64,000 nucleotides of DNA, from contig JBDGYV010000006.1 of NCBI GenBank assembly GCA_039588915.1, positions 13,116 through 77,115 of the forward strand. Direction: 5' to 3'. The translations under genes and the position numbers were made by a program. Numbering within the stretch: position 1 is the first letter of the stretch; every line of letters starts with the position of its first letter. Below the pieces are notes generated by a model. That model was not told where the DNA came from and ran no database searches. It saw only the letters and a list, made by a program, of their open reading frames with translations. Source of the stretch: Gemmatimonadota bacterium. GTDB lineage: Bacteria > Gemmatimonadota > Gemmatimonadetes > JACCXV01 > JAHWKZ01. Shown piece by piece: positions 7,858 to 55,411 of this stretch.

Positions 7858-7981
7858 CTAGGATCCGGGGTCTTCGAGAATCGTAGCGCGCCCCGCTGAG
7901 TACCAAACGCAGGGCACAGCAGATACCTTGGCGCGGCCATCCATGGCGCGACCAAGACCAGCGCCGAACTTATGAGGGGTC

Positions 7982-8608
7982 ATGCAGGAGCGCATCCTAG
8001 AGTTCATCGTCCCGTTTCTCGACCAGTACGGCTACCTGACGCTGTTTCTCGTGACGTTTCTCGAGACCAGCGCCTTTCTCGGGCTCATCGCCCCGGGCGA
8101 GACGGTAATCGTGCTGTCCGGCTTTTATGCGTTTCGGGGCGTGCTCGATCCGTGGGCGGTTGGGTTGATCGCCATCGTCGGCGCGTTCGCCGGCGATCAG
8201 GTCGGCTACTTGCTCGGCCGTACCTATGGTCACCAAGTGATCAGCCGCTTTGGTCGGTACTTCTTCTTCGACGAGAAACGGTTGTGCGCCACCGAGCACT
8301 ATTACGATCACCACGGTGGCAAGACGGTCCTTATCGGGCGCTTTATGTCGATCCTCCGATCGTTCGGTCCGGTGGTCGCCGGCATTAGCCGCATGTCGTA
8401 CTGGAAGTTTCTGCCGTGGAGCGTGTTGTCGTGTATCGTTTGGGGCACGACGTTCACGTTGGTCGGTTACTTCTTCGGCGCTTCGTGGGATGCGATCGAG
8501 CGCTATCTCGGTTGGGGGGGCGCGGTCGCATTCGTCGTCGGCATCGTGCTCATCATCTGGCTCCTTCACCGTAAACGCGAGCATCAGCTCGAGCAGGAGT
8601 ATGGGTAG
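7982..8608 (+). CDS. DedA/SNARE-associated family membrane protein
   Basis: 208 aa with TM helices and the conserved DedA core (GETVIVLSGF...G.FAGDQVGYLLGR). Confidence 0.85.
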   Translation: MQERILEFIVPFLDQYGYLTLFLVTFLETSAFLGLIAPGETVIVLSGFYAFRGVLDPWAVGLIAIVGAFAGDQVGYLLGRTYGHQVISRFGRYFFFDEKRLCATEHYYDHHGGKTVLIGRFMSILRSFGPVVAGISRMSYWKFLPWSVLSCIVWGTTFTLVGYFFGASWDAIERYLGWGGAVAFVVGIVLIIWLLHRKREHQLEQEYG

Positions 8609-15777: not shown

Positions 15778-16352
15778 ACCGGACGTTTTACACACTGCTG
15801 ATCGTCATCGCGCTCGGGTTTTCGGGCGGCCCGTCGATCGCTCAGGAAGTCGACACGCTCTCGCGGGCGCGGGTCGAGCAGCTCGAGCAGTTGCGTATCA
15901 GACGGCTGCAGAACGCGCTCGAGCTGAACGACCGCGAAGCCCGCGAGCTGGAAGCGGTTATGCGCGACTTTCGACGCCAAGACCGGGACACCGCGTTCAA
16001 ACGCAGAGACGCTACGCAGCGACTACGCCAAGTGCTTGGGCAGGAGCCCGTCAATGACAACGAAGTGAGCCGGGCACTCGACGAAGTCGAGGCTCAGAGA
16101 CGTGCGACCGAACGTCTACGAGAGCAACAGCGACAGCGGTTGGGACAGCTGCTGACACCTCAGCAGCGCGCCAAGTTCATGCTCTTCAACCGACAGTTCG
16201 ACGCCCGGCTGCGACAGCTGATGGCCGAGCGACGAAGTGATCGTCAGCAGGATCAACGTCGAGACCAGCGCGGCGTGCGTCAGCCACGCGGCTCGAATGC
16301 GCTACAAAACCAGCCCGACCGACCACCCAATCCGCAGCGTCCCAGGGACTAG
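15774..16352 (+). CDS. Periplasmic LTXXQ-motif protein (CpxP/Spy-like)
   Basis: ATGA overlap with the anti-sigma stop. Signal peptide, coiled-coil Arg/Gln-rich sequence, and LLTPQQRAKF (LTXXQ) motif. Confidence 0.55.
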   Translation: MNRTFYTLLIVIALGFSGGPSIAQEVDTLSRARVEQLEQLRIRRLQNALELNDREARELEAVMRDFRRQDRDTAFKRRDATQRLRQVLGQEPVNDNEVSRALDEVEAQRRATERLREQQRQRLGQLLTPQQRAKFMLFNRQFDARLRQLMAERRSDRQQDQRRDQRGVRQPRGSNALQNQPDRPPNPQRPRD

Positions 16353-20245: not shown

Positions 20246-21526
20246 CTAGACCGGGAACCCGCCCTCGCGCAGGAACGCCACCGTGCGTTCGGTGGCACCC
20301 GCCATTTGCTCCAGTGCAGCCTTGGCCGCTTTGCCAGCGGTATCGTCCGGCAGCCACGCCCGCCAACAGGCGGCTAGCTCCGCCGGTGAATCGACGACCG
20401 CCAATCCCCCCGACCGCTCCAGAACATCGACCTCATAGGGCTGGCCGTGGTTGGCCCCGATCGTCACCGGGACCCCGTGCGCAGCAGGCTCCATCACATT
20501 GTGGACCGCGCCTCCAAAGCTCCCGCCGACGTAGGCCAGATCGGCAATCGCATACAACCGATACAGCACCCCTACCCGATCGACGATCACCACCGCGCAC
20601 TCCGCGAGCCCCTCCCAGGTACCAAACCGGCAGGTCTCGAGTCCGAACCCCCGGGCCCGAGACTCAAGCCGCGCAATCGCCTTATCGGTCGGTTCGTGCG
20701 GCGCTACGATCGCGATCGTGCTGGGATGCGTCGTTCTGAGCCGAGCAAGCGCCGCCAACAAGACTCGCTCGTCGGCCGGCCACGTGCTACCACCCACGAT
20801 AACTGGGCCGGCACCCTCCGGCGGCTGCCACTCTGCCCTGTCAGATACCGCTTCGCGCGCTCTCTCCAGCGTCACGTCGGCGCGAGTGTCCCCGGCGACA
20901 CGCACCTTCCTCGCGTCAACGCCGAGATCCACTAATCGCTCAGCGTCCGCGGCCGCGATCGTCGCGACCGCGTCAAAACGGTGATACAGATCCCGGGTCA
21001 GTCCCCGCACTGGCCATTTGACTCGCGCTGAACCCACCAGACGACAACACGCTTGTCCCAACATGACACCCGCATCCGACGCCGCCCAGACCAGGTTCGG
21101 CCACGTCTCACCACCCACCAGCACGAGCGCGTCCGGCGTCAGGAGCTCAACTAGCTGACGTGTCTGTGCCGGGTAGTCGAGCGGCAGATAGTCGATGGCG
21201 TCGGGCACGTCCCAGGAGTGGACGAGCCGCTCAGCGGAGGGTGAGAAGTGCGTAAAAAAGATCACCGCGTCCGGCTGGGCGCGGCGGATCGCCGTTGCTA
21301 GCGGTCGCGCTTGGAGCGTTTCTCCGGCGCTGGCCGCGTGCAGCCAGATGACCGGGGACCGCCCGGCGGTCGCTTCAGCCGCCCGCTGCCAACGCTCCAG
21401 CACGCCCTGGCGCGCGGCGATCCCGCGGTCGACCTTTGGGACGGCTCGCGTCACAAGCGGCGTTGCTACGCGGGTCACCGGAACGATGAGCCGGTTGTAG
21501 ATCTGTCGCTGCCACAGTGGTTTCAC
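20246..21526 (-). CDS. waaA: 3-deoxy-D-manno-octulosonic acid (Kdo) transferase
   Basis: N-terminal WLHAASAGE motif and overall Glycos_transf_N plus GT-B architecture of KdtA/WaaA. Confidence 0.85.
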   Translation of the reverse strand: MKPLWQRQIYNRLIVPVTRVATPLVTRAVPKVDRGIAARQGVLERWQRAAEATAGRSPVIWLHAASAGETLQARPLATAIRRAQPDAVIFFTHFSPSAERLVHSWDVPDAIDYLPLDYPAQTRQLVELLTPDALVLVGGETWPNLVWAASDAGVMLGQACCRLVGSARVKWPVRGLTRDLYHRFDAVATIAAADAERLVDLGVDARKVRVAGDTRADVTLERAREAVSDRAEWQPPEGAGPVIVGGSTWPADERVLLAALARLRTTHPSTIAIVAPHEPTDKAIARLESRARGFGLETCRFGTWEGLAECAVVIVDRVGVLYRLYAIADLAYVGGSFGGAVHNVMEPAAHGVPVTIGANHGQPYEVDVLERSGGLAVVDSPAELAACWRAWLPDDTAGKAAKAALEQMAGATERTVAFLREGGFPV

Positions 21527-22079: not shown

Positions 22080-23648
22080 ATGACTGAGACCAAACGCATA
22101 CTCTGGGTCGACGACGAAGTCGCCGGCCTCAAGTCACACATTCTGTTTCTCGAGAATCGTGGGTTCGAGGTGACCACCGCACCCAACGGCGAAGACGCCC
22201 TCGCTCTCATCTCCGAAAACGGCTATGACTGCGTGCTGCTCGATGAACAGATGCCAGGCATGCGCGGGATGACCGTGTTTCGGCGCATCCGAGACAGCCA
22301 CCCACGCTTACCGGTGGTGATGGTGACCAAGAGCGAAGAAGAGGGTCTCATGGATCAGGCGATCGGCAGTCGAGTCGACGACTACCTCGTCAAGCCGATC
22401 AACCCGAATCAAGTCCTGTCGGTCCTCAAGCGCCTCCTCGAAGGGTCGCGAATCCGTCATCAAACAATCGCCCAAGCGTTTAGCCAGCGTTACATCGAAC
22501 TCGACGAGCTTCGGAAGACACGATCAACGTGGGACGACTGGGTTCAGCTGTATCGTGAGCTCCTCGGATGGGAGCTTCGATTGATCGATGCCGGCGAGCA
22601 GGGATTGTTGGAGAGCCAGGGCGAGCTGAGCAAAGCCGCCAATAGCGACTTCAGCAGCTTCGTCCAGACCCATTACCGAGAGTGGATCGCGTCAAAGCCG
22701 GGCTCGCGGCCGTTGCTCTCGCCGGACCTGGTGACGGCTCACGTTGTCCCGCTTCTCAGAGCCGATCCAGGGCCGGTCTTCCTCGTGTTGATCGACTGTC
22801 TGCGACTCGATCAATGGTTGGCGATTCGAGACACGCTGGAGGCTCACTTCACGATCGACGAGGCGCACGCGGGGTCGATACTGCCGTCGGCCACACCCTA
22901 CTCCCGCAACGCCATCTTCAGCGGTTGGCTACCCCGGCAGATAGCCGAGAAACGACCTGATCTGTGGCTCGGCGACGCGGACGTGGAAGGCTCGCTCAAC
23001 CCACACGAGCGCGAACTGTTAGAGCTCCAATTAGCGCGCAAGGATGCGGGCGATATCGGATCGGTCCAGTACACCAAGGTGTTCACGGCGACCGAGGGCG
23101 CGACAGCGCTCAAGAAACTGCCGCAATGCTTCCAGAGCCGCTTGTCGGCGTTCGTCTTTAACTTTATCGACGTGCTCACGCACGGCCGGTCGGAATCCGA
23201 GATCCTGCTCGAGATCGCGCCTGACCAACAGGCGTTTCGATCATTGACCCGCTCGTGGTTTCTGCACTCGGCGCTCTACGACTTGCTCATGCAGTCCGCC
23301 CGTCACGGTGTGCGCGTCGTGCTCACCACCGACCACGGTTCGGTTCACTGCATGCGTCCGGCTACCGTCTACGCACAACGCGACGCTTCGCAGAACCTGC
23401 GGTACAAGTTCGGCAACAACATTCGCTCGGAGGAGCCGGAGGCTGCGTTTCGGATCGCCGATCCGGGTCGCATCGGCCTACCTAACATGGGCTTCAACGT
23501 CGCCGCCCTGATGGCGGTCGAGGATTACTACTTCGTCTACCCGACCAAGCTCCGCGAGTACCAAAACCGCTACTATGGCGCCTTTCTTCACGGCGGAATC
23601 TCGCTCGAGGAGCTGATCCTGCCGGTGGCCACGCTGACGCCGCGCTAG
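22080..23648 (+). CDS. Response regulator with CheY-like receiver fused to a PglZ (alkaline-phosphatase-like) domain; PorX-like
   Basis: Receiver N-terminus (ILWVDDE…DCVLLDEQMPGMRG…VVMVTKS…YLVKP) followed by about 390 aa of PglZ-type domain. The length (522 aa) and architecture match the T9SS regulator PorX. Confidence 0.8.
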   Translation: MTETKRILWVDDEVAGLKSHILFLENRGFEVTTAPNGEDALALISENGYDCVLLDEQMPGMRGMTVFRRIRDSHPRLPVVMVTKSEEEGLMDQAIGSRVDDYLVKPINPNQVLSVLKRLLEGSRIRHQTIAQAFSQRYIELDELRKTRSTWDDWVQLYRELLGWELRLIDAGEQGLLESQGELSKAANSDFSSFVQTHYREWIASKPGSRPLLSPDLVTAHVVPLLRADPGPVFLVLIDCLRLDQWLAIRDTLEAHFTIDEAHAGSILPSATPYSRNAIFSGWLPRQIAEKRPDLWLGDADVEGSLNPHERELLELQLARKDAGDIGSVQYTKVFTATEGATALKKLPQCFQSRLSAFVFNFIDVLTHGRSESEILLEIAPDQQAFRSLTRSWFLHSALYDLLMQSARHGVRVVLTTDHGSVHCMRPATVYAQRDASQNLRYKFGNNIRSEEPEAAFRIADPGRIGLPNMGFNVAALMAVEDYYFVYPTKLREYQNRYYGAFLHGGISLEELILPVATLTPR

Positions 23649-37457: not shown

Positions 37458-38252
37458 TTAGTTCCGCGCTAGCTCGATGCTGCCGTTCACGGTTTGCATC
37501 TCGAGTCGGCCGCCTCCGGTCCCGATCGAACCCTCGATCCGGCGAGGTCCCCAACGCTTCCCGGCGGCAACCGCCAACGGAAAGTCGCTATTCAACCCAC
37601 CGTTGACGGTCTGGGCCACGACGCTGGCGTTGACATCGGCCGGGAGCCCCACGTTTATCGACCCGTTGACCGTGTGCAATGAGAGCGTCCCGTTCCATGT
37701 CCCCTGACCCATCGAAACGTCGATCGCGCCATTAACGGTGTGGGCTTCTACCGTGCCCGTGCCGGAGGCACTCACGGCTCCGTTTACGGTATGGACGCGA
37801 ACGTCACCGCGAAGTGAGTTGGCTTCGATCGCTCCGTTGACCGTATTGCCTACAAACTCGACACCGGCCGGCACTCGAACGGTGAAATCCACGGCGATGT
37901 CGTTCTTCTTTAACTTCTTATCGTAATCGCCGCGGTCCTCGTCGCAGGCGCCGCTGACACCACCCTCTCTGAGCGGATACGCCGCGCAAATCCGGACGCC
38001 ACCAGCGTGCTCGACAACCACAATCTCGACCTCGTTTGGATCGCTCTTCTCTGCGTGTCGAACCGCCACTAGCTCAACTGTCGATCCAGTCGCGGGCATG
38101 GCGTCGATCTCACCGTTTAGCCCCCGAATCTCGAGCGTCTTGCCGGCCTCGATCGCGCCCTCCCACCGAAACTCTGCTGTCCGTTGCGCCACCAGCGTCG
38201 CCGGCAGAGTGGCCAGTAGGGCCAGTGTGAGGAGTGTTCTTGTGAAGTTCAT
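37458..38252 (-). CDS. DUF4097 (putative adhesin / YvlB-like) beta-helical repeat protein, secreted
   Basis: Signal peptide and repeated HTVNGAI…/…VNGSI… units. Confidence 0.7.
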   Translation of the reverse strand: MNFTRTLLTLALLATLPATLVAQRTAEFRWEGAIEAGKTLEIRGLNGEIDAMPATGSTVELVAVRHAEKSDPNEVEIVVVEHAGGVRICAAYPLREGGVSGACDEDRGDYDKKLKKNDIAVDFTVRVPAGVEFVGNTVNGAIEANSLRGDVRVHTVNGAVSASGTGTVEAHTVNGAIDVSMGQGTWNGTLSLHTVNGSINVGLPADVNASVVAQTVNGGLNSDFPLAVAAGKRWGPRRIEGSIGTGGGRLEMQTVNGSIELARN

Positions 38253-38267
38253 TCGTCTCTCCCTCTC

Positions 38268-39149
38268 TTATCGATCCGAACGCTTTAGCAGGATCGCGCC
38301 ATTGAAGGTCTCGAGCTCGATTTGAGCGTCTCCTGAGCCCAGCGTGAACGTCGTCGACTTCCCGGGCTCAGCCTCGGTCACCGTCACCGGGAAGTCAGCC
38401 TCGAACTCACCGTTGTAGGTGAAGGCACTGATGGTGGCGTTGGCACCCCGCGGTATCGTGATATCGATCGTCCCGTTGTGGGTCTCCATGCTGTACCACC
38501 CATCGGAATGAATTGGGCCCCGAAAAACGATCGCACCGTTGACCGAGGATGCCTCCAGATTATGAGCATCGCAGCGCTCGAGCGTGACCGGACCATTCAC
38601 GGTCGTCGCCTCGATGTCGCCAACCACATCGGTCAGCGACACGAACTCGTTGACCGAGTGGGCCTCAACGCGACCACGGGCACCGGTCAGTTCGATGCCA
38701 CCCTCCACTGATCCGACCTCGATCGTGTTCCGCCCGCCGTTGACGCGAACCAGCCCCTTCATCGAGTGCGCTTCGATCCGTCCAGTCGTGCCCTCGATCG
38801 AGATGCGGCCTTCAATCGTGTGCGCCTCGATGTCCGCATCCACCGGGATCGTGAGGGTAAAGTCAGTCGCACGACCCTGGCCGTGAACCATCTCGGCCTC
38901 GACGCTCACCTCGGAGTCGTTGCTGTCGAAGTGCACATCCGCCGCACCCGTGGCCTGAACGCGGACCGCGTTTCGATCCCATGTACTGATGGTGATGTCG
39001 CCGACCATGTTGTCAACTTCGATCGTAGCGTTGGCACCCACCGAGAGCAGCGTGTCTACTGCGGCCTGCGGTCTCGCGGTCGCTGGGCTCAGGGTGATCA
39101 ACGCAAATCCAATTACAACTGTGATGTATCGCATCGGAATCCTCCTCAT
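38268..39149 (-). CDS. DUF4097 (putative adhesin / YvlB-like) repeat protein, secreted
   Basis: Signal peptide and repeated …EAHS(V/M)…G.I.. units, paralogous to the downstream gene. Confidence 0.7.
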   Translation of the reverse strand: MRRIPMRYITVVIGFALITLSPATARPQAAVDTLLSVGANATIEVDNMVGDITISTWDRNAVRVQATGAADVHFDSNDSEVSVEAEMVHGQGRATDFTLTIPVDADIEAHTIEGRISIEGTTGRIEAHSMKGLVRVNGGRNTIEVGSVEGGIELTGARGRVEAHSVNEFVSLTDVVGDIEATTVNGPVTLERCDAHNLEASSVNGAIVFRGPIHSDGWYSMETHNGTIDITIPRGANATISAFTYNGEFEADFPVTVTEAEPGKSTTFTLGSGDAQIELETFNGAILLKRSDR

Positions 39150-39865
39150 ATCGATGTTCGAATGATGCTCGTAGCTTGGCGCACGACATCGAGCTTCCGC
39201 TGTCGAGCACCGGCCAGATAGTTGTAGAGCTGTGTGCTTTCCGGATCGGCATCAATCGCCTCGACGATCTCCTCGATCGCCTGATCGATCGCCGTCAGGT
39301 TGGCTTCCACGGTGGCCACCGTCTCGGGGTCCAATCGATCGCGGTACATCGCCAGGAGCTCCTCGAAATCAGCCACCGCGGCATCCTCAGCGACGTCTGG
39401 GGCTGGACATTTTCGAGGGATGCCGAGGAACGTGCAGTCGAGGCTCGCTAGCTGCGTGGGGGTCGCACTGTCGGGTTGCACGGCGGTTACCGGCGGGCCA
39501 CCATCGGTGCCGCGCTCGGCTCCCGATCGCGCCCACCACGTCGCGCTGACCGACAGAACGATCAAAGCCACCGCTGCCGCTGCCATCTGCGGCAACGTAA
39601 ACGAGAGTAGGCGTCGGGCGCGGTGTGTTTCAACCGATACCACCATCGATCGATCCTCGAGCCGCTCTTCGATTCCACTCCAAAGTTCGTTCTCCGGCGG
39701 CCGGTCCTCGAGCGACCGTGCCTGAACGACGATCCCTCGCAAATCGGCGAGCACCCTCTGACAATCGGCGCACGTTTCCAAATGGTGCTCAACCGATGTC
39801 CGCTCGGCGGCATCCAGGTCGCCATCTATATAGGCCGACAAGCGTTCTGTAGAATGCTCACTCAT
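39146..39865 (-). CDS. Zinc-finger (ZAS-type) anti-sigma factor with a TM helix
   Basis: HLETCADCQRVL motif, a TM segment MAAAAVALIVLSVSATWWA, and a 4-nt overlap with the downstream gene. Confidence 0.7.
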   Translation of the reverse strand: MSEHSTERLSAYIDGDLDAAERTSVEHHLETCADCQRVLADLRGIVVQARSLEDRPPENELWSGIEERLEDRSMVVSVETHRARRLLSFTLPQMAAAAVALIVLSVSATWWARSGAERGTDGGPPVTAVQPDSATPTQLASLDCTFLGIPRKCPAPDVAEDAAVADFEELLAMYRDRLDPETVATVEANLTAIDQAIEEIVEAIDADPESTQLYNYLAGARQRKLDVVRQATSIIRTSI

Positions 39866-39875
39866 TATCCGACTC

Positions 39876-40394
39876 CTAGGCGGTTAACTGCTCGCGCAAC
39901 AGCATGCGCGCGCGATGGAGCTGGGACTTTGATGTTCCAGCCGCGATGTCGAGCAGGTCAGCGATCTCATCGTGCTTGTATCCCTCGATGTCGTGGAGCA
40001 CGAACACTTCTCTGGCTTTTCCGGGCAGCGTTTCGATCGCGGCTTCCATGTCGACGCTGATCTCGGTCGACGCCGGGCGGACTTGCACCCGCTCCACCGG
40101 TTCATCCGTAGCCGCGTACCTCTCGCGCTCACGGGACTTCGTTTTTCGGTGTCCAAGCATCACGTTTATCGCCACCCTATGTAACCAGGTTGAGAACGCT
40201 GCATCGCCACGAAACGTGTCGAGCTTTTTCCAAGCCAGCACGAACACGTCCTGTGTCAGCTCGTCGGCTTCCTCCGGTCCCACCATGCGCCGCGCCAAAC
40301 TGTGAACGCGCGGTACGTGGTCGTGGTACAAGCGTTCGAACGCCCTTGCGTCGCCCTCGGCAGCCAGCCGAACATCTGTCGTCGAGCCCGTCAC
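39876..40394 (-). CDS. ECF (sigma-70 family) RNA polymerase sigma factor
   Basis: Region 2 (FERLYHDHVPRVHSLARRMVGPEEADELTQDVFVLAWKKL) and region 4 (HDIEGYKHDEIADLLDIAAGTSKSQLHRARMLLR). Confidence 0.85.
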   Translation of the reverse strand: MTGSTTDVRLAAEGDARAFERLYHDHVPRVHSLARRMVGPEEADELTQDVFVLAWKKLDTFRGDAAFSTWLHRVAINVMLGHRKTKSRERERYAATDEPVERVQVRPASTEISVDMEAAIETLPGKAREVFVLHDIEGYKHDEIADLLDIAAGTSKSQLHRARMLLREQLTA

Positions 40395-40499: not shown

Positions 40500-41039
40500 T
40501 CAGACCCCGTCAAGGAGGGATCGGTAGACGGCGAGGTCGGAATCGGTGAACAGGACGAAGCGGACCAGCCGCACCGAGCCGGGATCCGCCAGCCACTCCC
40601 GGACCGCCCCCACGGCCACCGGGGCGGCGTGGTCGATCGGGTACCCGTAGGCACCGGTGGAGATCGAAGGGAAAGCGACCGAAGCCAGTTCGTGTGCGTT
40701 GGCCAGATCGAGGGCATGGACGTAGCAGCTCCTTAGGAGCTCGGGCTCACCGCAATCGCCACCTCGCCACCAAGGCCCGACCGCGTGGATGACGTAACCG
40801 GCGAGCAGGTCATGGCCGCCGGAGATCCTCGCCTCGCCGGTGGGACACCCACCCAACTTTCGACACTCTTCCAGCAGTTGTGGGCCCGCCGCCCGATGGA
40901 TCGTACCATCGACACCACCGCCACCGAGCAGGGACTGGTTGGCGGCATTCACGATGGCATCGACTTGCTGGTGGGTGATGTCACCAACCAGCGCCTCAAT
41001 GGCGGACGTGCTCAATTCGTCGCCGGCGCCTCGATCCAA
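40500..41039 (-). CDS. Macro-domain protein (O-acetyl-ADP-ribose deacetylase / YmdB-like)
   Basis: [34 protein letters not shown] and [12 protein letters not shown] motifs. Confidence 0.8.
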
Positions 41040-41548
41040 TCCGGCATCGGGTTCTCGTCGCGTACTTCATCCCAAGCGATCGACACCACGTACCACCGAT
41101 CGCCATCGGTGACCAGTGTGATGGTGTTGATGCCGTACGTGAACGGCTCTTCATCGACAGCATTGCGTGACTCGTAGGCGCTCATCGCGTTGGCGACGTT
41201 GCCGAATCTGAGCCGAACGTAATCCTCGTAAGTAAAGACTCGCGCCGGGTGGCTCCCATCGGGCCTAGGCACCATCGCCGACAGCACCGCACCAGGTGCG
41301 AACAGCGAGCGGAACCGATCCCAATCCCGCTCTCCCGCCGGACCCGAGATCACGTCGTAGAGGGCTGCGATGATGGCGTCGATCGACTCGACATCGGCCG
41401 GATTGGCCTCGGGGTGAGCGGGGGTTTCCGGTTGAACCGTGGCATCGGCCTCGGCGTTCGCTTTGGCCTCGTCGTCCTGCGCATGCGCCGGGCTAGCGAC
41501 TCCGAATGCGCCGAGCACGATGCCCGCTATGAGAAGCTGCTTCCACAT
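41012..41548 (-). CDS. Secreted protein of unknown function, possibly with an NTF2/SnoaL-like fold
   Basis: Signal peptide [23 protein letters not shown]. Overlaps the macro-domain gene start by 28 nt. No confident family assignment. Confidence 0.5.
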
Positions 41549-41644
41549 AGTTCTTTCCTCGTTGAGATCGTTACCGCTTACAGGCTATTGGAGTTGAGCC
41601 CGTGCAAGATAGAACGGTCCCCGGGCAGACCCAAACGTGGGGAA

Positions 41645-44296
41645 CTAGAACGGAACCCAGTAGGTGAACTTGACGGCGAAGACGTTATCGCCGTCGGCGG
41701 TGAATGCGTCGAGCAGGTCGCCAGGCGCGACTAGCGCCCCTCGAGTGTCATCTTCGGAGCGATTCTGTTGCCACACGACGAACAGCGTGCTTCCCGGGCT
41801 CCACTCCCACCGCAGGACCAGGTTGCTCCGGAACGACAACACATCGAAGTCGGGGTTATCGAACGAGAACGACTCGCCTCCGACGCTGACGTCGTAGTTG
41901 CCGTCTTCGTCTCGCGTGATCGTCCCGTCATCCTCACCGTAGACCAAGAGATCGTTGGTCCTCGGGGCGGCCAGCTCCCCGACCCCAAAGTACCGCCCAC
42001 TCGATGCGAACGGTTCGGCGTATAGCTCGAGGTTCAGATCGGGTGTAAACGAGTAGTTGGCGCGCAGCGCGGCCGCGATCTCGCTACGATCGATGAAGCC
42101 AAACACATAGCGGCTGCCAAACGTCGCTTCGCGACCGTCATCGAAAGAGTCGATGAACTGTCGCGAGTCCCGACGCCTCACGTACCGAGGCTCGGCGGAG
42201 ATCACCAACCGATCCGAGGGCTGGTATCGGAATTCGGGGTCGACTCGGTACTCCCAGCCGCCGATCTCGTTGCGGCTGAGAAGGAAGCGCGTCCCCCAGC
42301 GATTGGGGCTGTTGTGGTTGCTGAACAGGCCTCCCACAACCCAGAAGCTGCTCGGGTTCTCCATGAGCGGGCCACCGCGCGTCTGGGTGTCGCTCTGGTA
42401 TCGGAAGTTGTGTCCCACCTCGAAGAAACTACGCATGAAGTTGAGGAACGTGGCGTTCGCGAAGACGCCCACGTTCTGGTTTCTGTTGACGCCATCGAAG
42501 TTCCACCCCTGGTTCGTAAAGACGCCCATTTCCCAGTTTCGGAAGTGGTCGCCGGGGTCGGTCTCGGTGTACCGGATGTTGCCCCACGCGTTGGCCTCGT
42601 CGGCGTGGCCAAGGCGGCCCACGTCGTTGACGTCGAACCCGGGGGATTCCATCCACACGCCGTGGCCCCAGCGCCAGTTTCCGGTCCTCTTGCCGCCCCG
42701 TAGAGAAGCCGTCCAGCCGGAGAGCGATTCGCGTGTCGGATCGACTTCCACGTGATCTTGGTCGGGTCGCTGATAGTAATGAACGCTGCTCTCCTGTAAC
42801 TCGAGGATCGCCTCTGGAGAACCACTCACGTGACTGAATCCTGCGTGACCCAGGATCTCGTACCAGCCGTCGGTAAACCGCTTGTTCCAGTCGACCCCGC
42901 CGGTGATAGCCTGCTGGGGGAGGGAATCGGCCAACTCGCTTCCTGACTCGAGACTGCGGTTCACGCCGGTGAGCGTAACGCCAACCGTGGAAGCATTCTC
43001 GCCTATCTGCTGCTGCAGGCGAAGCACTCCGTACGTCGTCGTAGGCTCGACATCAACTTCCCCGATCTCGTCGATCCCAGTGTCAAAGAACTGGGCTTTC
43101 TCGTCATCGGTCACCGCCGCCAGGGCGCCGATCGTTAGCCCTGACTCCAACTGACCGGTCATCTTGGCTGCGCCTATGATCGTGGTCGTGCTGGGCGCAT
43201 TGACAAAATCGTGGTCCGGCTCATTATGCGGCGGCGCTCCGATCCGGCGCGAGTAGTAATAGTCGGGCCCCACGCCATCGAAGTTTTGCTGCCCAGCGGT
43301 GAAGAACGGTCGGCGCTCGTCGAAGAACGTCTGAAACGCCGAGAGGTTGACCTCGGCTGGATCGGCCTCGACTTGTCCGAAATCAGGGTTGATCGCGGCG
43401 TCGAGGGTGAGGTTCGGTCCCAACCCCATCCGGAAGTCGAGACCGGTTCGAGCGTCTCCGTCAGTGGTCTCACCGAACGGGTCGTCCGCGTCGATTAGAT
43501 CCTCCGATGTCATCGTGGTGGAGCCGGCCACGTAGGGAATCAGCTCGATACGCTTGTTTGACGGCAAGTTGTTGAGGCCGACTAGATCGCCAAACCGCGA
43601 CGCCCAACCGGTCTCGTCGCGGGGCACGATGATCCAGAACGAATCCTCGTTGATCGCCGGCACATACCGATTGATGTTCACCCCCCACACCAGCTCCTTG
43701 CTGCGGTTAAAACGAAGCTGCGAGAACGGGATTCGCATCTCGGCTGTCCAGCCACTGTCGGTCACATTTGCGCGGGCAGTCCAAACCGGATCGAACGTGA
43801 AATCGCGCTGGAACTCGTGATCCACGGGATGGAAGTAGTCGACCCGCACACCGGCCGCCGTGACCGCAAAGTTGTACGCGGTGCGTCGATCGAGAAACGT
43901 GTCGAGCGAAACGATCAGCCGCTCGGCTTGTCCGGGATCGTCCCGGCGCGTCATCAAGTTACCGATCGTGGCCGGGTCATCGCTGTGCATGCGAGCGCCG
44001 ACATAGAGTGCTTGATCGTCGTACAGAAAAGCGACCTCTGTGTCGAGACTCGCCGGCTCTCCCTGATCAGGCTCCTTTTGGATGAACTTGGTGACCCACC
44101 GGGCTGTCTCCCACACGGACTCGTCTAGATGGCCATCGATCGACGGCGACCCGCCCGATACGCGGGCGACCTCGATACGCTTGCGCTGGTTACTATCCCG
44201 TGGGAGGTCTTCGGCACCACCGGGGCTGCTCTGAGCGAGCGCGGCCGACGGCCACAACATCAGAATGGCGATCGCTACACGGAAGATCATCAACAC
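41645..44296 (-). CDS. Large outer-membrane protein: N-terminal CBM9-like carbohydrate-binding domain plus DUF5916-type beta-barrel
   Basis: 883 aa with a signal peptide. N-terminal region IDGHLDESVWETA…FLYDDQALYVGARM typical of CBM9-like/DUF5916 proteins. C-terminus …KFTYWVPF ends in Phe, an outer-membrane barrel signature. Confidence 0.65.
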   Translation of the reverse strand: MLMIFRVAIAILMLWPSAALAQSSPGGAEDLPRDSNQRKRIEVARVSGGSPSIDGHLDESVWETARWVTKFIQKEPDQGEPASLDTEVAFLYDDQALYVGARMHSDDPATIGNLMTRRDDPGQAERLIVSLDTFLDRRTAYNFAVTAAGVRVDYFHPVDHEFQRDFTFDPVWTARANVTDSGWTAEMRIPFSQLRFNRSKELVWGVNINRYVPAINEDSFWIIVPRDETGWASRFGDLVGLNNLPSNKRIELIPYVAGSTTMTSEDLIDADDPFGETTDGDARTGLDFRMGLGPNLTLDAAINPDFGQVEADPAEVNLSAFQTFFDERRPFFTAGQQNFDGVGPDYYYSRRIGAPPHNEPDHDFVNAPSTTTIIGAAKMTGQLESGLTIGALAAVTDDEKAQFFDTGIDEIGEVDVEPTTTYGVLRLQQQIGENASTVGVTLTGVNRSLESGSELADSLPQQAITGGVDWNKRFTDGWYEILGHAGFSHVSGSPEAILELQESSVHYYQRPDQDHVEVDPTRESLSGWTASLRGGKRTGNWRWGHGVWMESPGFDVNDVGRLGHADEANAWGNIRYTETDPGDHFRNWEMGVFTNQGWNFDGVNRNQNVGVFANATFLNFMRSFFEVGHNFRYQSDTQTRGGPLMENPSSFWVVGGLFSNHNSPNRWGTRFLLSRNEIGGWEYRVDPEFRYQPSDRLVISAEPRYVRRRDSRQFIDSFDDGREATFGSRYVFGFIDRSEIAAALRANYSFTPDLNLELYAEPFASSGRYFGVGELAAPRTNDLLVYGEDDGTITRDEDGNYDVSVGGESFSFDNPDFDVLSFRSNLVLRWEWSPGSTLFVVWQQNRSEDDTRGALVAPGDLLDAFTADGDNVFAVKFTYWVPF

Positions 44297-44309
44297 ACCA
44301 CGCCCATCG

Positions 44310-44699
44310 CTAACTACTCTCCTGCTTAGCCTGCTCGATCATATTCGCCAGCCGATCCAGCTCCTCTTTTGAGAGCTTAGATGGCCTGTGATCGAGAAGG
44401 GTTGCAACGGCATCCTCGAGCGAGTTGTCGAAGAACGTCCTCAGGAGCCTGTTGATCGCCGACCGACGGGCGGCTTCCACCGGCACCGTTGCCTGGTACA
44501 CATAACGTGGCCCGTCCTTACGGTGTTCAACGTGGTCTTTGTCCTCCAATACGCGCAGCATCGCTCGGACCGCGCTATAGCTGGGCGCCTCGGGCAATCT
44601 CGCCCGGACGTCAGCCGCCGTCGCAGAGCCGAGCTGGTAGACGATATCCATGATCTGGCGCTCACGACGGCTGAGCTCGCCGTGGAGGGTCTCGATCAT
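44310..44699 (-). CDS. BlaI/MecI/CopY-family transcriptional repressor
   Basis: 129 aa. Winged-helix N-terminus (LSRRERQIMDIVYQLGSATAADV) and a C-terminal dimerisation helix. 13 nt upstream of the large OMP gene. Confidence 0.85.
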   Translation of the reverse strand: MIETLHGELSRRERQIMDIVYQLGSATAADVRARLPEAPSYSAVRAMLRVLEDKDHVEHRKDGPRYVYQATVPVEAARRSAINRLLRTFFDNSLEDAVATLLDHRPSKLSKEELDRLANMIEQAKQESS

Positions 44700-44777
44700 C
44701 GCTGGAGCTCCCGAAATCAGGTCGGTGGGTAAACGATCAGACGACAGATGCTAGTTTTTTAGCACGCCCCCTCTCGC

Positions 44778-45557
44778 TTGTCAAGCATTACCTTTCGCGC
44801 ACTCATGGTCTATTTCTTGATCCCGGCGTACGAGGAGGAGCAGACGATCGGCCTTCTCCTCTACAAAATCCGTTCCGTAATGCAGACCGTTCGTCGCGAC
44901 TATCTGGCGATCGTTCTCGACGACGGCTCGCGAGACGCCACCGCCAAGGTCGCGGAGCGATATCGCAAGTTCCTGCCGGTAAGAGTTCTGAAGCACGCCA
45001 ACAATAACGGGGTTGGACCCGCGCTCGACCGATTGGTTCGAGAAGCATGCCGGCTGTCCCGCTACCCGCAACGCGATATCGCGATCACCATCGAAGGCGA
45101 TTTCTCGTGGTCGCCGGATCCGGTGCCAGACATGGTTCGGCAGATTGAAGCCGGTGCGGATATCGTGATCGGCGCACGTGAGAGACCCGATCGACCGTCT
45201 GAGGCGATGCCGTTCTCTCGTCGTGCTGGAGCGCGAGTCGTGTCTACGGTTCTCAAGGCGGTCATGCCGCTCCAAGGAGTCACCGACTACACGTCGACGT
45301 TCCGCGCCTATCGGATTAGCACACTCAAGCAAGCGATCACCGTGAACCAGGAGAATCTCATCACGTACCGGGACAACGCAGCCAACGTAGAGCTTCTCCT
45401 GCGCCTGGGGCGCTTGCACCCGTCGATCGCCGAGGTGTCGGCACCAACACGTTGCGACATCCGCACTCGCGAATCACGGCACGAGTGGCACGGCGCGGTC
45501 AAGAGCCAACTGAGCCTCACCGGCCGCGTGGGCCGCGCTCCCGCCGCCCGAGGCTGA
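44778..45557 (+). CDS. Family 2 glycosyltransferase (Dpm1/polyprenol-phosphate sugar transferase-like)
   Basis: VLDDGSRDAT (DxD region) and a GT2 core. The start is probably an internal M near 44805. Confidence 0.75.
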   Translation: MSSITFRALMVYFLIPAYEEEQTIGLLLYKIRSVMQTVRRDYLAIVLDDGSRDATAKVAERYRKFLPVRVLKHANNNGVGPALDRLVREACRLSRYPQRDIAITIEGDFSWSPDPVPDMVRQIEAGADIVIGARERPDRPSEAMPFSRRAGARVVSTVLKAVMPLQGVTDYTSTFRAYRISTLKQAITVNQENLITYRDNAANVELLLRLGRLHPSIAEVSAPTRCDIRTRESRHEWHGAVKSQLSLTGRVGRAPAARG

Positions 45558-46442: not shown

Positions 46443-47957
46443 GTGATGTCCGTAAGGTCGATACGAATCCGATCGGTCGCGACGGTGCTCGGGCTGTCGC
46501 TTTTCACCATGGTCGCGATCGCCAGTCGGCCCCAAGCGGCGGCCGAGTCCTCGATCCGGATCGCCGCAGGGGACACGCTTCCGTCATGGCTGGCCACGGT
46601 GGCCAATGGCCCGCTATCCCGAGCACACTGGGGTGTGGCTGTATACGACATCGAGGCCGGGCAGTGGGTCGCGCTTCACAACGCAGATCGCTTTTTTGTT
46701 CCGGCATCCAACCTCAAGCTGGTGGTAAGCGCTGTCGCCCTCGAACGTCTGGGCCCCGATTTCACCTACCGGACGACCATCTACGCGACGCAACCAATCG
46801 GTTCCGATGGGACGCTGATTGGAGACCTCGTGCTGTACGGTCGAGGCGACCCGAACTTGTCCGGGCGCCACGCGCCATCGATGACCTCGATTTTCGAATG
46901 GCTCGCTGATTCCCTGGTGAAGCGGGGCCTGAAACGGGTCACCGGAGACCTGATCGCCGATGAGTCGCATTGGGATAACGAGTACCACCACCGGGACTGG
47001 TCCGGCTTCGATCAGATGTGGTGGTACGCGGCACCCGTCGGCGCGCTCGGTTTCAACGACAACAGCATCGATGTTTCGATCCGACCGGGGCCTCGCGCCG
47101 GCGTGCCACCGTCGATTGAGACTAGACCGCAGTCACCCTTCTATACCTTGTACAACCACGCGGTGACCGGGACAAGGGGCATCGAATCGACGTTCGATAT
47201 GAAACGCGAACCGGGTTCCAATCGGATCACCGCGTTTGGCGTGCTGCCGCTCGATGAGCCACCAAAAACGGCGTATGTCGCGGTGGTGGGTGCGGCGGAC
47301 TATTCGGCGACAATTCTTCGAAGCGTGCTCGTCGACCGCGGCATTGAGATCGAGGGTCGCGTCCGAACGGTGTCGGATCCGCTCGCCTCGCCGGTGCGAT
47401 TGGGTGACTCGATCGCGCTCGCCAATCATCGATCGATACCAATGGCGAGAGTGCTCGAGTCGATCAACGGCCGGAGCCAAAACTGGCACGCCGAGCAGGT
47501 GCTAAAGACGTTGGGCCGGGAGATCACCGGTGCCGGAACATGGAAGGCTGGTCTCGAAGTTGAGCGCGAAACGTTGGCTCAGTTAGGAATGGATACAACG
47601 GCGTTTCTGTTGCGCGACGGCTCGGGGCTCTCGCCGGCGAATCTGACGACCCCCCGAGCGTTGGCGGAGCTCTTGATGACCATGCGCTCACGCCCTGACG
47701 GCGACGTTTTTGCGCGAACGCTGTCGGTCGCTGGCCAGAGCGGTTCCCTCAAGGGGCGCTTTCGAGGCGGCGCCGCTCAAGGACGGGTGCGAGCCAAGAC
47801 CGGTTTCATCGCCAACGTCTACGCGCTGTCTGGGTATATGACCACGGTTTCCGGCCGCGAGTACGCTTTCAGTGTATTCGTCAACGGTGCCGGTTCGCGG
47901 GCCAACCCAGCCATCGATCGACTCGTGGAAGGGTTTATCCTCGGCTGGGCGCCGTAA
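46443..47957 (+). CDS. dacB: D-alanyl-D-alanine carboxypeptidase/endopeptidase, PBP4 (peptidase S13)
   Basis: Signal peptide; SxxK region PASNLKLV; LYGRGDPNLSG; and KTG (RAKTGF) motifs of class C PBPs. Confidence 0.85.
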   Translation: MMSVRSIRIRSVATVLGLSLFTMVAIASRPQAAAESSIRIAAGDTLPSWLATVANGPLSRAHWGVAVYDIEAGQWVALHNADRFFVPASNLKLVVSAVALERLGPDFTYRTTIYATQPIGSDGTLIGDLVLYGRGDPNLSGRHAPSMTSIFEWLADSLVKRGLKRVTGDLIADESHWDNEYHHRDWSGFDQMWWYAAPVGALGFNDNSIDVSIRPGPRAGVPPSIETRPQSPFYTLYNHAVTGTRGIESTFDMKREPGSNRITAFGVLPLDEPPKTAYVAVVGAADYSATILRSVLVDRGIEIEGRVRTVSDPLASPVRLGDSIALANHRSIPMARVLESINGRSQNWHAEQVLKTLGREITGAGTWKAGLEVERETLAQLGMDTTAFLLRDGSGLSPANLTTPRALAELLMTMRSRPDGDVFARTLSVAGQSGSLKGRFRGGAAQGRVRAKTGFIANVYALSGYMTTVSGREYAFSVFVNGAGSRANPAIDRLVEGFILGWAP

Positions 47958-47960
47958 CCA

Positions 47961-48734
47961 TTGACAGACGATCCGACGCATCCTCCACCCGGATACGACC
48001 GCTGGCAACAAGGATCACACACGGTTGTCGCCTGGCGGGTCGCCGCAGATGACGTTCGCACTGCGATCGATCAAGCCGGGTCGCTAAGCGTATGGGCTGC
48101 CAATCGATCCCGACAAAGGATCGACACTGGCCGCGGTTCAGTGTATCGGGTGAGGTTGGGAGAATACGACGCTGCGGTGCGTCACTTTCGACGTGGTGGT
48201 TGGATGGCGCCGTTGCTTGGCGATCGGTACCTCGACTCGCCACCACGACCGTTTCTGGAGCTCGTCGTCAGCGAGCAACTTCGTCGCGCCGGTGTCTCTA
48301 CGCCTCGCGTAGTGTGCGCCGTCGTTACGTCGGCGCGTCCTGGCTACCGAGCCGACTTGGCAACCGAGTGGCTCGAACCGGGGCACGACCTGGAAGCGCT
48401 GTTGGCACCGAATCGGTACCCGGTGGACGTCCGCATCTCAGCCATGCGCGCAGCCGGCGCCTTGGTGGGTGATGCCCATCGATGCGGTCTCGATCATGCC
48501 GACTTGAACATCGGCAATGTTTTTGTACAGCCGTTGGCCGACGGTCAGTGGGGAGCGTCTCTGTTGGACCTCGATCGGGCGCGCGTTACCGAACCAGATG
48601 GGGCGCGCGCAACCGCTAACCTAGAACGCTTTCAGCGATCGCTCGAAAAGGTTCGCCGGGCTGGACGCGTGACTTGGAGCAGCGTCGAGCTCGACGCATT
48701 CAGACAGGCTTACGACGACGTGTCCGGCAGATAG
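47961..48734 (+). CDS. Kdo / lipopolysaccharide kinase family protein (KdkA/InaA-like)
   Basis: Catalytic loop GLDHADLNIGNVFV and DLD motif. TTG start 4 nt after the dacB stop. Confidence 0.65.
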   Translation: MTDDPTHPPPGYDRWQQGSHTVVAWRVAADDVRTAIDQAGSLSVWAANRSRQRIDTGRGSVYRVRLGEYDAAVRHFRRGGWMAPLLGDRYLDSPPRPFLELVVSEQLRRAGVSTPRVVCAVVTSARPGYRADLATEWLEPGHDLEALLAPNRYPVDVRISAMRAAGALVGDAHRCGLDHADLNIGNVFVQPLADGQWGASLLDLDRARVTEPDGARATANLERFQRSLEKVRRAGRVTWSSVELDAFRQAYDDVSGR

Positions 48735-53465: not shown

Positions 53466-53819
53466 ATGCTTGGGTTTATCCGAGATCGGTTTGGGGCCAT
53501 AGAGGGCTTCCAGGTGTTCCTCGAGGAAGCCGACGAGGGCGCCTTTGCAGCCACTTCTCCGGCCTTGCCCGGCTACATCGCGTACGGTCAGTCCGAGTCG
53601 AGCGCGATACGCCGGCTAAAGCGCGCCATCCGTCGCAACCTCGATGGCGTCGCCCAAGACCACGTCCGAGTATCGGATCACGGCAATGGCCGAGCCAGCC
53701 GCCATAAGTCTCACCTGTACCTGCAGCCACCGCTCACTGCGACCACGAAGATCGTTTTCGCGTCTGTGGCCCTGGCCACCTTGGCGCTGATCGCATACGA
53801 GCTGAGGCGGCGAGACTAA
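53466..53819 (+). CDS. HicB-like (UPF0150) domain protein with a C-terminal TM helix
   Basis: The N-terminus FQVFLEEADEGAFAATSPALPGYIAYGQSESSAIRRLKRAIRRNL matches the HicB/UPF0150 fold. C-terminal IVFASVALATLALIAYEL hydrophobic helix. No HicA partner seen. The ATG at 53466 lies inside the tracker ORF. Confidence 0.4.
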   Translation: MLGFIRDRFGAIEGFQVFLEEADEGAFAATSPALPGYIAYGQSESSAIRRLKRAIRRNLDGVAQDHVRVSDHGNGRASRHKSHLYLQPPLTATTKIVFASVALATLALIAYELRRRD

Positions 53820-55411
53820 CCCTCGGGCAGGCAGCCCTCCCTGCCGTTCGGTGTGCTCGACCCGGTCGCGCACGACAGAGGCGAGTGCCATCGCGAAAAC
53901 TCGGCCAACCGCTCGACGATCACATCTTCGATCGACATGGCGGCCCACTTCCCACGCGGCAAGTTGTTGATCAGAATCGAAAAGACCAGTAGCTCCCCGT
54001 CGCTGGTCGTGACGTAGCCCGAAAGCGCGGAAACACCGCGTAGCGTGCCGGTCTTGCTGTGGACGTTGCCGCGCACCGCAGGAGCGTCGAGCCGACGTGG
54101 ATTTCCGTCTTCACCGGCGATCGCGAGCGATGCGTAGAACTCATCGAACAGCGGGTGTGCGCGCATCGCCACCAAGAGCTCGGCGGTGCGTCGGGCAGTA
54201 AGAAGGTTGAGACGGCTTAGACCCGAACCGTCTTCGATCGTCAGCCCATCGGTTTCCAGTCCCAGTCCCTCAAGCACGTCGTAGACCACCTCGGCCCCAC
54301 TGGCGAACGACCCGTCGGCTTTGAAGACAGCGCCAAGTGTTTTCAGAAGCTGCTCGGCGAAGAAATTCTGGCTACGCTTGTTGATGATCTTGACGATGTC
54401 AGACATGCGGGGGCTGGTGTGGCTCACGAGCAAGGTCGCCGACTTGGCTCCCTCCCGTTGCCAGCGGTGCACGACCCGCTCGCCACCCTCGATCTCGATC
54501 CCCACTCGTCTCAACCGGTCGGCAAATACCGAGGTCGTATAGAGCGCCGGGTCTTCGACCGAAACCATGTACTGGAGCGGACGACTTCTGAGCGGGATTC
54601 GACCACGGATCAAGTAGTCACCGGTTTCCGGCTGGCGCCGTATCCCGATTGAACGGCCACCCCGGCGTCCCACGGTGACCGCTTGGTTCGAGATCTCCAG
54701 ACGATCGGTATGCGGATAGAAAGTGAGCGCAGGGAGTGCACCGACCCACCCGCCAGGCTGGATCTCGATCGTGACCACGTTGTCGTTGAACGAGAGGGCG
54801 CTCGAACGAGCACCGTACCAGCGCAGCAAGTTCGTGCTGTCCCACCCCGGTGCGATCCGTGTATCGTCGAGGTACGTCGCGTCGCCTACGACTGCGCCGG
54901 TGACACGACGGATGCCCATCCTCTTGAGGCGGGCGGCAAATCGATCGAAAACAAACGTCACGCTATCGCCATGGAAGCGACCTGAGAGCGTCGGGTCTCC
55001 GCGTCCGACAAGGATCAAGTCGCCATCAAGTGTCCCGTCGGGATGGATTTCGCCATCGGCGTAAACCGACGTCGTGTACTGAAAATCTGGCCCGAGTCGG
55101 TCGAGCGCGGCGGCGGTGGTGTAGAGCTTCATGTTCGAAGCTGGGGTCAGTGGCAGGTCGGCGTTGTGAAGGTAGAGCGGGTTGCCGAGGTCGGCGGCGT
55201 ACACCGCGACCCCAATTCGACCACCCCGCCGGCGAACGATCGGGTCGAGGAGCTCGGCGATCGCCGCTGAACCGCCATCCTCCACCACACCGTCGCCAAC
55301 CAGGTCGCCTTGCGCCGTCACGGCGATCGGGAACAAAGCCAGCAAGATCGGCGCAATGACGAGCGCGACAACAAGGCGAGGCGACTTCAGCATGCTACAG
55401 CTCCCGCGCAC
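53816..55411 (-). CDS. dacB: D-alanyl-D-alanine carboxypeptidase/endopeptidase, PBP4 (peptidase S13), second paralog
   Basis: Signal peptide; SxxK PASNMKLY; LVGRGDPTLSG; KTG (HSKTGT). About one-third identical to the 46443 paralog by eye. Confidence 0.85.
   Translation of the reverse strand: MRGSCSMLKSPRLVVALVIAPILLALFPIAVTAQGDLVGDGVVEDGGSAAIAELLDPIVRRRGGRIGVAVYAADLGNPLYLHNADLPLTPASNMKLYTTAAALDRLGPDFQYTTSVYADGEIHPDGTLDGDLILVGRGDPTLSGRFHGDSVTFVFDRFAARLKRMGIRRVTGAVVGDATYLDDTRIAPGWDSTNLLRWYGARSSALSFNDNVVTIEIQPGGWVGALPALTFYPHTDRLEISNQAVTVGRRGGRSIGIRRQPETGDYLIRGRIPLRSRPLQYMVSVEDPALYTTSVFADRLRRVGIEIEGGERVVHRWQREGAKSATLLVSHTSPRMSDIVKIINKRSQNFFAEQLLKTLGAVFKADGSFASGAEVVYDVLEGLGLETDGLTIEDGSGLSRLNLLTARRTAELLVAMRAHPLFDEFYASLAIAGEDGNPRRLDAPAVRGNVHSKTGTLRGVSALSGYVTTSDGELLVFSILINNLPRGKWAAMSIEDVIVERLAEFSRWHSPLSCATGSSTPNGREGCLPEG

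Follow-up and report, generated by a model that had tools for sequence, protein, structure and literature searches.

Organization of the blaI-DUF5916 locus

The subject of this analysis is a blaI repressor gene, and the genes that follow it, in a stretch of 64,000 nucleotides (nt) from a Gemmatimonadota bacterium (assembly GCA_039588915.1, contig JBDGYV010000006.1, positions 13,116 to 77,115 of the forward strand), which at its full length will be referred to as the window. Four open reading frames (ORFs), whose coordinates were verified and whose third-position GC content is high, lie on the minus strand at positions 40500-44699, with blaI at least 19 kb away from both window ends (Table 1). 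In the direction of transcription they encode a BlaI/MecI/CopY-family repressor, a large DUF5916 protein predicted to reside in the outer membrane, a small secreted protein and a macro-domain protein. A preliminary description of the region had named the four products in this way and had called the third one NTF2-like; the assignments of BlaI, of the DUF5916/CBM9-like protein and of the macro protein turned out to be right, whereas the NTF2-like call is weakly supported.

Two junctions between these genes are to be redrawn. The gap of 13 nt described between blaI and the DUF5916 gene holds with a GTG start, but relatives use an ATG, and the corresponding ATG at 44290, 6 nt inside the GTG, is probably the true start, with which the gap amounts to 19 nt. 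Similarly, the macro gene does overlap its upstream neighbour, but most likely by the 4 nt (TTGA) that result from a TTG start at 41015, as in the related locus L092, and not by 28 nt.

BlaI is intact and no M56 gene accompanies it

The product of blaI matches Pfam PF03965 (Penicillinase_R) along the whole profile (positions 1-115 of 115; E 2.3e-27, 96 bits against a cutoff of 22.6) and has the size (about 120-130 amino acids) and the architecture of the family, with an N-terminal winged helix-turn-helix followed by a C-terminal helical dimerisation domain. A PDB search with the single sequence retrieved only the CopR DNA-binding domain (2k4b), and a profile of the clade was needed to reach MecI (1sd6 and 1okr, 2e-14) and BlaI (1sd4, 1.6e-13), which it matches at full length and over both domains. 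At the position equivalent to the scissile N101-F102 bond of Staphylococcus aureus the sequence is ATL-LD, with Leu-Leu instead of Asn-Phe, and it is identical in the members of the clade that lack an M56 gene and in the M56-paired orthologues of loci L083 and L087.

A canonical BlaI/BlaR1 system has an adjacent, co-transcribed gene for an M56 sensor-protease; the orthologous loci L083 and L087 possess an adjacent M56 gene, whereas it is absent here. The absence of M56 from the window, already claimed in the preliminary description, was confirmed by motif, tblastn and Pfam searches and extends to flanks of about 8 kb, so that about 72 kb were covered in total. The six-frame translation of the window contains no M56-type HExxH motif, no PF05569 match was found in Pfam scans of 44 window ORFs, and tblastn with five Gemmatimonadota M56 proteins against the window and its flanks gave nothing below E 0.3. 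Neither the gene tables nor tblastn revealed an M56 gene in the 5.2 kb beyond the left end or in the 3.1 kb beyond the right end.

The gene slot between GT2 and DUF5916 occurs in three states

A search for the DUF5916 family rendered more than 7,500 matches at E <= 1e-10, distributed among Gemmatimonadota, Zixibacteria, KSB1, Acidobacteriota and Bacteroidota, the closest ones being from Gemmatimonadota, and a blaI homologue was found near the DUF5916 gene in 11 of 80 genomic DUF5916 loci. A metagenome scan with a single DUF5916 protein returned one locus, L081. The linkage of blaI and DUF5916, for which conservation across genomes had been proposed as a test, is therefore not peculiar to one genome and constitutes a conserved module of Gemmatimonadota loci. 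Eight of these loci, mostly from Longimicrobium and its relatives (L007, L008, L010, L013, L017, L024, L026 and L042), contain blaI, an M56 gene, usually an extra gene, and then the DUF5916 gene; their M56 proteins were identified by Pfam in three cases (3e-31 to 5e-37) and by tblastn in the others. The gene order is DUF5916-blaI-M56 in L021, and in L061 blaI stands directly 5' of the DUF5916 gene without M56.

Closer relatives share the entire neighbourhood, with the GT2, DUF3108, (S13) and Kdo kinase genes on the divergent upstream side, and the DUF5916 gene followed by genes for the NTF2-like protein, an extracytoplasmic function (ECF) sigma factor, a zf-HC2 anti-sigma factor and DUF4097 proteins on the downstream side. 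Among them the slot between GT2 and DUF5916 occurs in three states. The order is blaI-M56-DUF5916 in L083 and L087; in the window, L081, L092, L094 and L095 blaI abuts the DUF5916 gene and M56 is precisely absent; and in L082, L084 and L086 there is no M56 and the intact blaI is gone, leaving only recognisable remnants. The M56 proteins of L083 (473 amino acids, tblastn to other M56 proteins 7e-60) and L087 (436 amino acids, with a PF05569 match) have four transmembrane-like segments and the motif HELAHV(E/K)R(H/N)D, which reads HELAHVERHD in L083. As the same slot holds blaI-M56-DUF5916 in sister loci, the M56-bearing order is ancestral and the window represents a precise deletion of M56. The adjacency of blaI and DUF5916, which had been regarded as an unusual regulatory pairing, is thus due to the loss of the M56 gene, and represents neither a new partnership nor a design with DUF5916 in the place of BlaR1.

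The third state points in the same direction, since the persistence of blaI remnants indicates that the blaI module was ancestral to the syntenic group. L084 retains a fragment of 60 codons (7503-7685; 49% identity over residues 47-89), L082 a stretch (7849-8003) that keeps 'VLEDKGH..EHRPDWPRY', and L086 a short trace at 7900-8003. These remnants in the GT2-DUF5916 spacer are a record of independent decay of the module.

The window BlaI is about 71-74% identical to the M56-paired BlaI proteins of L083 and L087, and 80-97% identical to those of the M56-less clade, whose members were recovered from JGI, ENA and Logan samples. The ratio of nonsynonymous to synonymous substitution rates (dN/dS) of BlaI is 0.10-0.26 in comparisons between the five M56-less loci, with dS of up to 0.6, close to the 0.14-0.23 of the neighbouring genes; it is 0.10 for the M56-paired couple L083/L087. 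By these values BlaI is under purifying selection after the loss of M56.

A conserved promoter and predicted operator precede blaI

The blaI promoter was defined by comparative conservation instead of by a generic scan; such a scan did not list it, its TAAAAA lacking the final T, and found sites at chance level. All 18 loci inspected have TTGAC(A/G/T) 5' of blaI, and in 16 of them it is followed 13-15 nt further on (14 nt in the window) by a 16-bp palindrome with the consensus TGCTR-N6-YAGCA and an AT-rich spacer, often in tandem duplicate. L061 and the distant locus L011 lack the palindrome upstream of blaI. The window version, TGCTA-N6-TAGCA, has a sole match in the window, the one given in Table 1, even when one mismatch is allowed (chance expectation 0.29); its A-rich spacer contains the -10-like TAAAAA, and it is situated in the intergenic region of about 105 nt that blaI shares with the divergent GT2 gene. 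A palindrome at its own promoter is a trait of the BlaI family, and this one, conserved across loci, is the predicted operator. A box of the TACA/TGTA type had been anticipated upstream of 44699; none is present in 44700-44830, and the operator of this clade is of the TGCTA-N6-TAGCA type instead.

Within 150 nt 5' of blaI the exact TGCTR-N6-YAGCA sequence was found in 10 of 13 clade loci, L021 and L013 having only boxes with one mismatch and L061 none, and L087, L085, L092, L094 and L095 carry the exact box too. The 1.19 Mb of loci contain 28 exact occurrences, 12 of which are within 150 nt upstream of blaI. A further seven lie between blaI and DUF5916 (L010, L017, L024, L026 and L061), either before the DUF5916 gene or before a repeat-protein gene that precedes it, and most of the others, with their GC-rich spacers, look like chance matches. 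Across the M56-less clade the half-sites are invariant and the spacer varies. With a relaxed box, a second match (TGCTGAGGTGTCAGCA) appears in the window at 16150-16165, within an ORF whose Pfam Metal_resist match is weak and does not reach the cutoff; given this location and its GC-rich spacer, it was rejected as an operator and is probably due to chance. Rfam gave nothing at the gathering threshold anywhere in the window, and a generic scan found terminator-like sites in the region in numbers no higher than chance. The weak hairpin that follows the DUF5916 gene (Table 1) may permit partial read-through into the NTF2-like and macro genes.

Table 1. Genes and regulatory elements at the blaI-DUF5916 locus (window coordinates)
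Feature	Position	Strand	Remarks
blaI	44310-44699	-	BlaI/MecI/CopY-family winged-helix repressor; 129 amino acids, 0 cysteine
DUF5916 gene, predicted outer-membrane protein	41645-44296 (GTG start) or 44290 (ATG start)	-	883 or 881 amino acids
Secreted protein gene, weakly NTF2-like	41012-41548	-	178 amino acids; signal peptide
Macro gene, YmdB-type, predicted O-acetyl-ADP-ribose deacetylase class	40500-41015 (ORF to 41039)	-	Pfam and NCBIfam
-35-like hexamer TTGACA of the blaI promoter	44779-44784	-	Comparison across loci
Predicted operator palindrome TGCTAAAAAACTAGCA	44749-44764	strand-neutral	65 nt 5' of the blaI ATG
Weak terminator-like hairpin	41616-41631	-	Directly 3' of the DUF5916 stop; 5-bp stem, poor T tract

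Variants of the module in other loci

Some loci depart from the arrangements described above. L011 (14560-15950) encodes, about 4 kb downstream of DUF5916, a BlaI that is only distantly related (28% identity) and is paired with an M56 of its own; this blaI is preceded by repeats of the TACA/TGTA and TAC-N4-GTA types and not by the TGCTA box, from which it follows that two operator dialects coexist in the phylum. In L085 (7740-11060, protein P0071), as well as in protein P0096, blaI is in frame with DUF5916 in a single ORF of 1106 or 1092 amino acids; the BlaI stop is missing and the linker enters the signal-peptide-like segment of the barrel. L085 has an operator box 72 nt upstream of the fused ORF and no M56 within 8 kb. 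Such an ORF could stem from read-through in gene calling, with an internal start, or could be a true fusion.

In Longimicrobium-type loci the gene that stands free between M56 and DUF5916 (L008 6859-7893; L010 6979-7851; L017 6569-7477; L024 7081-7887; L026 3088-4053) belongs to no Pfam family and is akin to the region of SDYE-type repeats at the C-terminus of the M56 proteins. Additional operator boxes are located 5' of it in L010, L017 and L024.

The DUF5916 barrel and the products of the downstream genes

The DUF5916 protein matches Pfam DUF5916 (PF19313) at 1e-67 and 229.7 bits, with a marginal CBM9_1 match (24.3 bits, the cutoff being 23.4). Its further features are a signal peptide, a CBM9-like domain at about residues 40-245 and the C-terminus ...YWVPF. 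In its AlphaFold model (pLDDT 76.5, pTM 0.74) a CBM9-like beta-sandwich, which resembles CBM9 1i82 (TMt 0.72), is followed by about 26 long strands, and Foldseek against the PDB retrieved MtrB (6r2q_B, E 6.5e-9), TonB-dependent receptors, LptD and AlgE. The modelled protein thus has the signal peptide, the large antiparallel barrel and the C-terminal aromatic residue of an outer-membrane beta-barrel, and its membrane location is predicted. No paper mentioning DUF5916 was found in a literature search.

The secreted protein of 178 amino acids belongs to no Pfam or NCBIfam family. The best PDB matches of its model (pLDDT 77) are all NTF2/SnoaL/CaMKII-hub folds, although weak (E 0.06-0.3, TM 0.3-0.47). 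Its gene is present 3' of DUF5916 in L001, L081-L084, L086, L087, L092, L094 and L095; as it comes after the DUF5916 gene in all members of the syntenic group, the protein is a conserved partner of DUF5916 on the downstream side. The window copy has an in-frame deletion of 20 amino acids (FGGTYFMENAFFERESGRKL in the 84%-identical relative P0122), which include nearly invariant residues of this NTF2-like family, so that it may be impaired or may represent an assembly variant.

The macro protein matches Pfam Macro at 3.4e-44 and NCBIfam NF001664 (O-acetyl-ADP-ribose deacetylase) at 215.1 bits, above the equivalog cutoff of 200, and is assigned by these profiles to the YmdB-type O-acetyl-ADP-ribose deacetylase class, its activity being predicted. 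The gene is confined to the M56-less clade (window, L081, L092, L094 and L095) and is absent from L082, L083, L084, L086 and L087. For the wider group it is therefore rejected as a component of the module, and what had been described as a macro domain within an envelope operon is better seen as a clade-specific neighbour.

A proteolytic switch that has probably lost its sensor

Family membership, synteny, deletion of M56, conservation of the operator and purifying selection are observed at this locus, which is probably a sensor-less derivative of a Gemmatimonadota BlaI/M56 proteolytic switch whose regulated output is the DUF5916 barrel. That sister loci carry blaI-M56-DUF5916 implies that DUF5916 is the output of an ordinary switch of this kind. 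In the ancestor, blaI, the gene for an M56 (BlaR1-type) membrane metalloprotease and the DUF5916 gene would have been transcribed from one promoter composed of TTGACA, 14 nt and TGCTR-N6-YAGCA, the AT-rich spacer of which would double as the -10 region. Dimers of BlaI on the palindrome would block RNA polymerase, and cleavage of BlaI by the activated M56 protein would induce the operon. In the window clade M56 was deleted exactly, which brought blaI to 19 nt 5' of DUF5916, and purifying selection has kept BlaI intact, along with the promoter and one operator box. BlaI most likely autorepresses the blaI-DUF5916 operon, and repression possibly extends, by read-through, into the NTF2-like and macro genes. 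As the operator sits in the shared intergenic region, BlaI may also affect the divergent GT2 gene.

As for the relief of repression, we prefer, with a confidence that falls a little short of even, the reading that BlaI could be cleaved in trans by a paralogous M56 protein encoded elsewhere; in the phylum several BlaI/M56 systems can occur in one genome, and more than one M56 or BlaI/M56 system in one locus, as illustrated by L042, where another M56 lies at a distance of about 3 kb, and by the distinct blaI-M56 pair of L011. Several points weigh against the scheme as a whole or against its trans-acting part. With Leu-Leu instead of Asn-Phe, the cleavability of BlaI in this clade is an assumption; binding of BlaI to DNA, repression, cleavage of BlaI and the way in which the operon is induced are inferred; and the trans-acting M56 is hypothetical, the M56 search having covered the 72 kb mentioned above. 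Moreover, three related lineages have dropped blaI altogether, so that the repressor is dispensable in some backgrounds. There is one exact box upstream of blaI in the M56-less clade against two in L083/L087, which could mean a weakened, non-inducible control, and TAAAAA is a poor match to TATAAT, in a phylum whose promoter rules are not established.

The main rival reading is a BlaI that is never cleaved and acts as a negative autoregulator, holding blaI-DUF5916 at a low, noise-buffered set point with inducibility abandoned. This is possible, although we would not call it probable. The repressor gene heads the operon and the operator overlaps its own promoter, the second tandem box of L083/L087 has decayed in the M56-less clade, no M56 is present within the region searched, and there are further M56-less lineages with blaI and DUF5916, namely L061 and L085. 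On the other hand, the conservation of the C-terminal domain, including the equivalent of the cleavage position, equals that of M56-paired relatives, M56 paralogues are frequent in the phylum, and L082, L084 and L086, with neither M56 nor a need for regulation, have lost blaI too. It is very unlikely that blaI is merely a decaying, non-functional remnant whose adjacency to DUF5916 has no regulatory meaning. All stages of decay are indeed seen in relatives, from the fragment of L084 to the short traces of L082 and L086, and the neighbouring NTF2-like gene of the window carries the deletion described above, but the ORF of 129 amino acids is intact in five loci from different samples, its dN/dS is low at an appreciable dS, and it is the spacer that varies, not the promoter or the half-sites of the operator.

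There remain two readings in which an M56 protein plays no part. BlaI might have been rewired to a ligand, to the envelope proteins of the operon, or to ADP-ribose signalling through the macro protein, which we consider unlikely. The loss of M56 and the gain of the macro gene mark the same clade, the start of the macro gene is coupled in translation to the gene before it, and M56-less blaI-DUF5916 arrangements have arisen more than once (L061, L085); the macro/M56 correlation, though, stands for a single evolutionary lineage, in L061 and L085 no macro gene adjoins the others of the operon, the macro protein is a cytosolic enzyme of the ordinary YmdB type, and BlaI, 74% identical to its M56-paired orthologues, is devoid of cysteine and of any additional domain. 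Were such an input real, blaI-DUF5916 would be a circuit that responds to the envelope in a way new in kind, and DUF5916 would be an outer-membrane channel that can be induced and that serves in the physiology of stress or of cell-surface glycans. The other reading, that BlaI belongs to the Cu/Zn-binding, naturally M56-free CopY branch of the family, is scarcely credible. It is suggested by the best NCBIfam match, CopY/TcrY (4e-14), and by the CopR structure retrieved with the single sequence, but the TIGR02698 score of 53 bits is far under the cutoff of 122, no copper ATPase is encoded nearby, the orthologues are M56-paired, and the operator is not a TACAnnTGTA cop box. Metal sensing of the CopY type is ruled out by the lack of cysteine, and thus of the C-terminal CxCx4CxC site.

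If the locus is a switch that has lost its sensor, as we favour, the BlaI/M56 pair together with a defined operator would provide the first regulatory handle on a DUF5916 subfamily in Gemmatimonadota, and such control predicts that the DUF5916 barrel is an inducible component of the envelope. The series of loci, with the full module, with the sensor deleted and the repressor kept, and with remnants of the repressor, would constitute a natural experiment on the loss of the protease from a one-component proteolytic switch, and the TGCTR-N6-YAGCA box could be used to map BlaI regulons in the poorly studied Gemmatimonadota. Known principles are not overturned.

Other genes of the neighbourhood

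Downstream of the operon, on the same strand, genes for an ECF sigma factor, a zf-HC2 anti-sigma factor and two DUF4097 'toastrack' proteins occupy positions 37458-40394; this set adjoins the DUF5916 and NTF2-like genes in the whole of the syntenic group, and may be a second unit of envelope signalling. The divergent upstream operon comprises the GT2 glycosyltransferase, DUF3108, S13 DD-carboxypeptidase and Kdo kinase (47961-48734) genes, and the gene order of the neighbourhood is kept in relatives. The S13 gene of this operon is one of two paralogous D-Ala-D-Ala carboxypeptidase genes of the window (46443-47957, plus strand; 53816-55411, minus strand), which together with the Kdo kinase gene and a Kdo transferase gene (20246-21526) make this a neighbourhood rich in envelope biogenesis genes. 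In addition, the ORF at 22080-23648 (plus strand), whose neighbours are ABC exporter and methyltransferase genes, has a product of 522 amino acids in which a receiver domain of the response-regulator type is fused to a PglZ domain.

Comparison with known BlaI-type systems

The repressor belongs to the same family as those of the S. aureus BlaI/BlaR1-blaZ and MecI/MecR1-mecA systems, as indicated by the profile matches to 1sd4, 1sd6 and 1okr, and shares with them a repressor gene that heads an operon with M56 in the sister loci and a palindrome that overlaps the promoter. The scheme outlined above follows the proteolytic-relief logic of BlaI/BlaR1-type systems (PMC7593790). In contrast to the S. 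aureus systems, the M56 gene has been deleted in the window clade, and the M56 proteins of the sister loci have no penicillin-binding sensor domain, carrying a short Pro-rich tail or SDYE-type repeats instead. The regulated gene encodes a predicted outer-membrane barrel here and a beta-lactamase or a penicillin-binding protein in S. aureus, the half-sites are TGCTA/TAGCA and not TACA/TGTA, and the residues at the scissile position are L-L and not N-F.

In staphylococcal cassette chromosome mec (SCCmec) elements with deleted mecR1-mecI, mecA is under the trans control of BlaI/BlaR1, and the cross-talk between BlaR1 and MecI in staphylococci is a precedent for induction in trans. The likeness lies in a BlaI-type regulon that has lost the sensor gene belonging to it and works by cross-talk with a paralogue; the difference is that both repressor and sensor have been lost there, whereas only the sensor has been lost here and the cognate repressor is kept, the cross-talk proposed for this locus being hypothetical. 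The clade profile also matches, at 3e-6 and over the first ~100 profile positions only, the structure of Mycobacterium tuberculosis BlaI (Rv1846c, 2g9w), a distant relative, the partner of which, BlaR (Rv1845c), is an M56 protein without a penicillin-binding sensor domain. That system differs from the present one in that M56 is present and in that its targets are others. CopY/CopR repressors are of the same Pfam family and are naturally devoid of an M56 partner, but the Cys-rich site, the cop box and the copper genes are missing here. Finally, PvmSR of Pseudomonas aeruginosa has been described as an atypical BlaIR system with a role unrelated to beta-lactam resistance (bioRxiv 10.64898/2026.08.03.742534); it resembles our locus in being a BlaI/BlaR-type pair in a Gram-negative bacterium, and differs from it in that the sensor is present, virulence genes are targeted and no connection with DUF5916 is mentioned.

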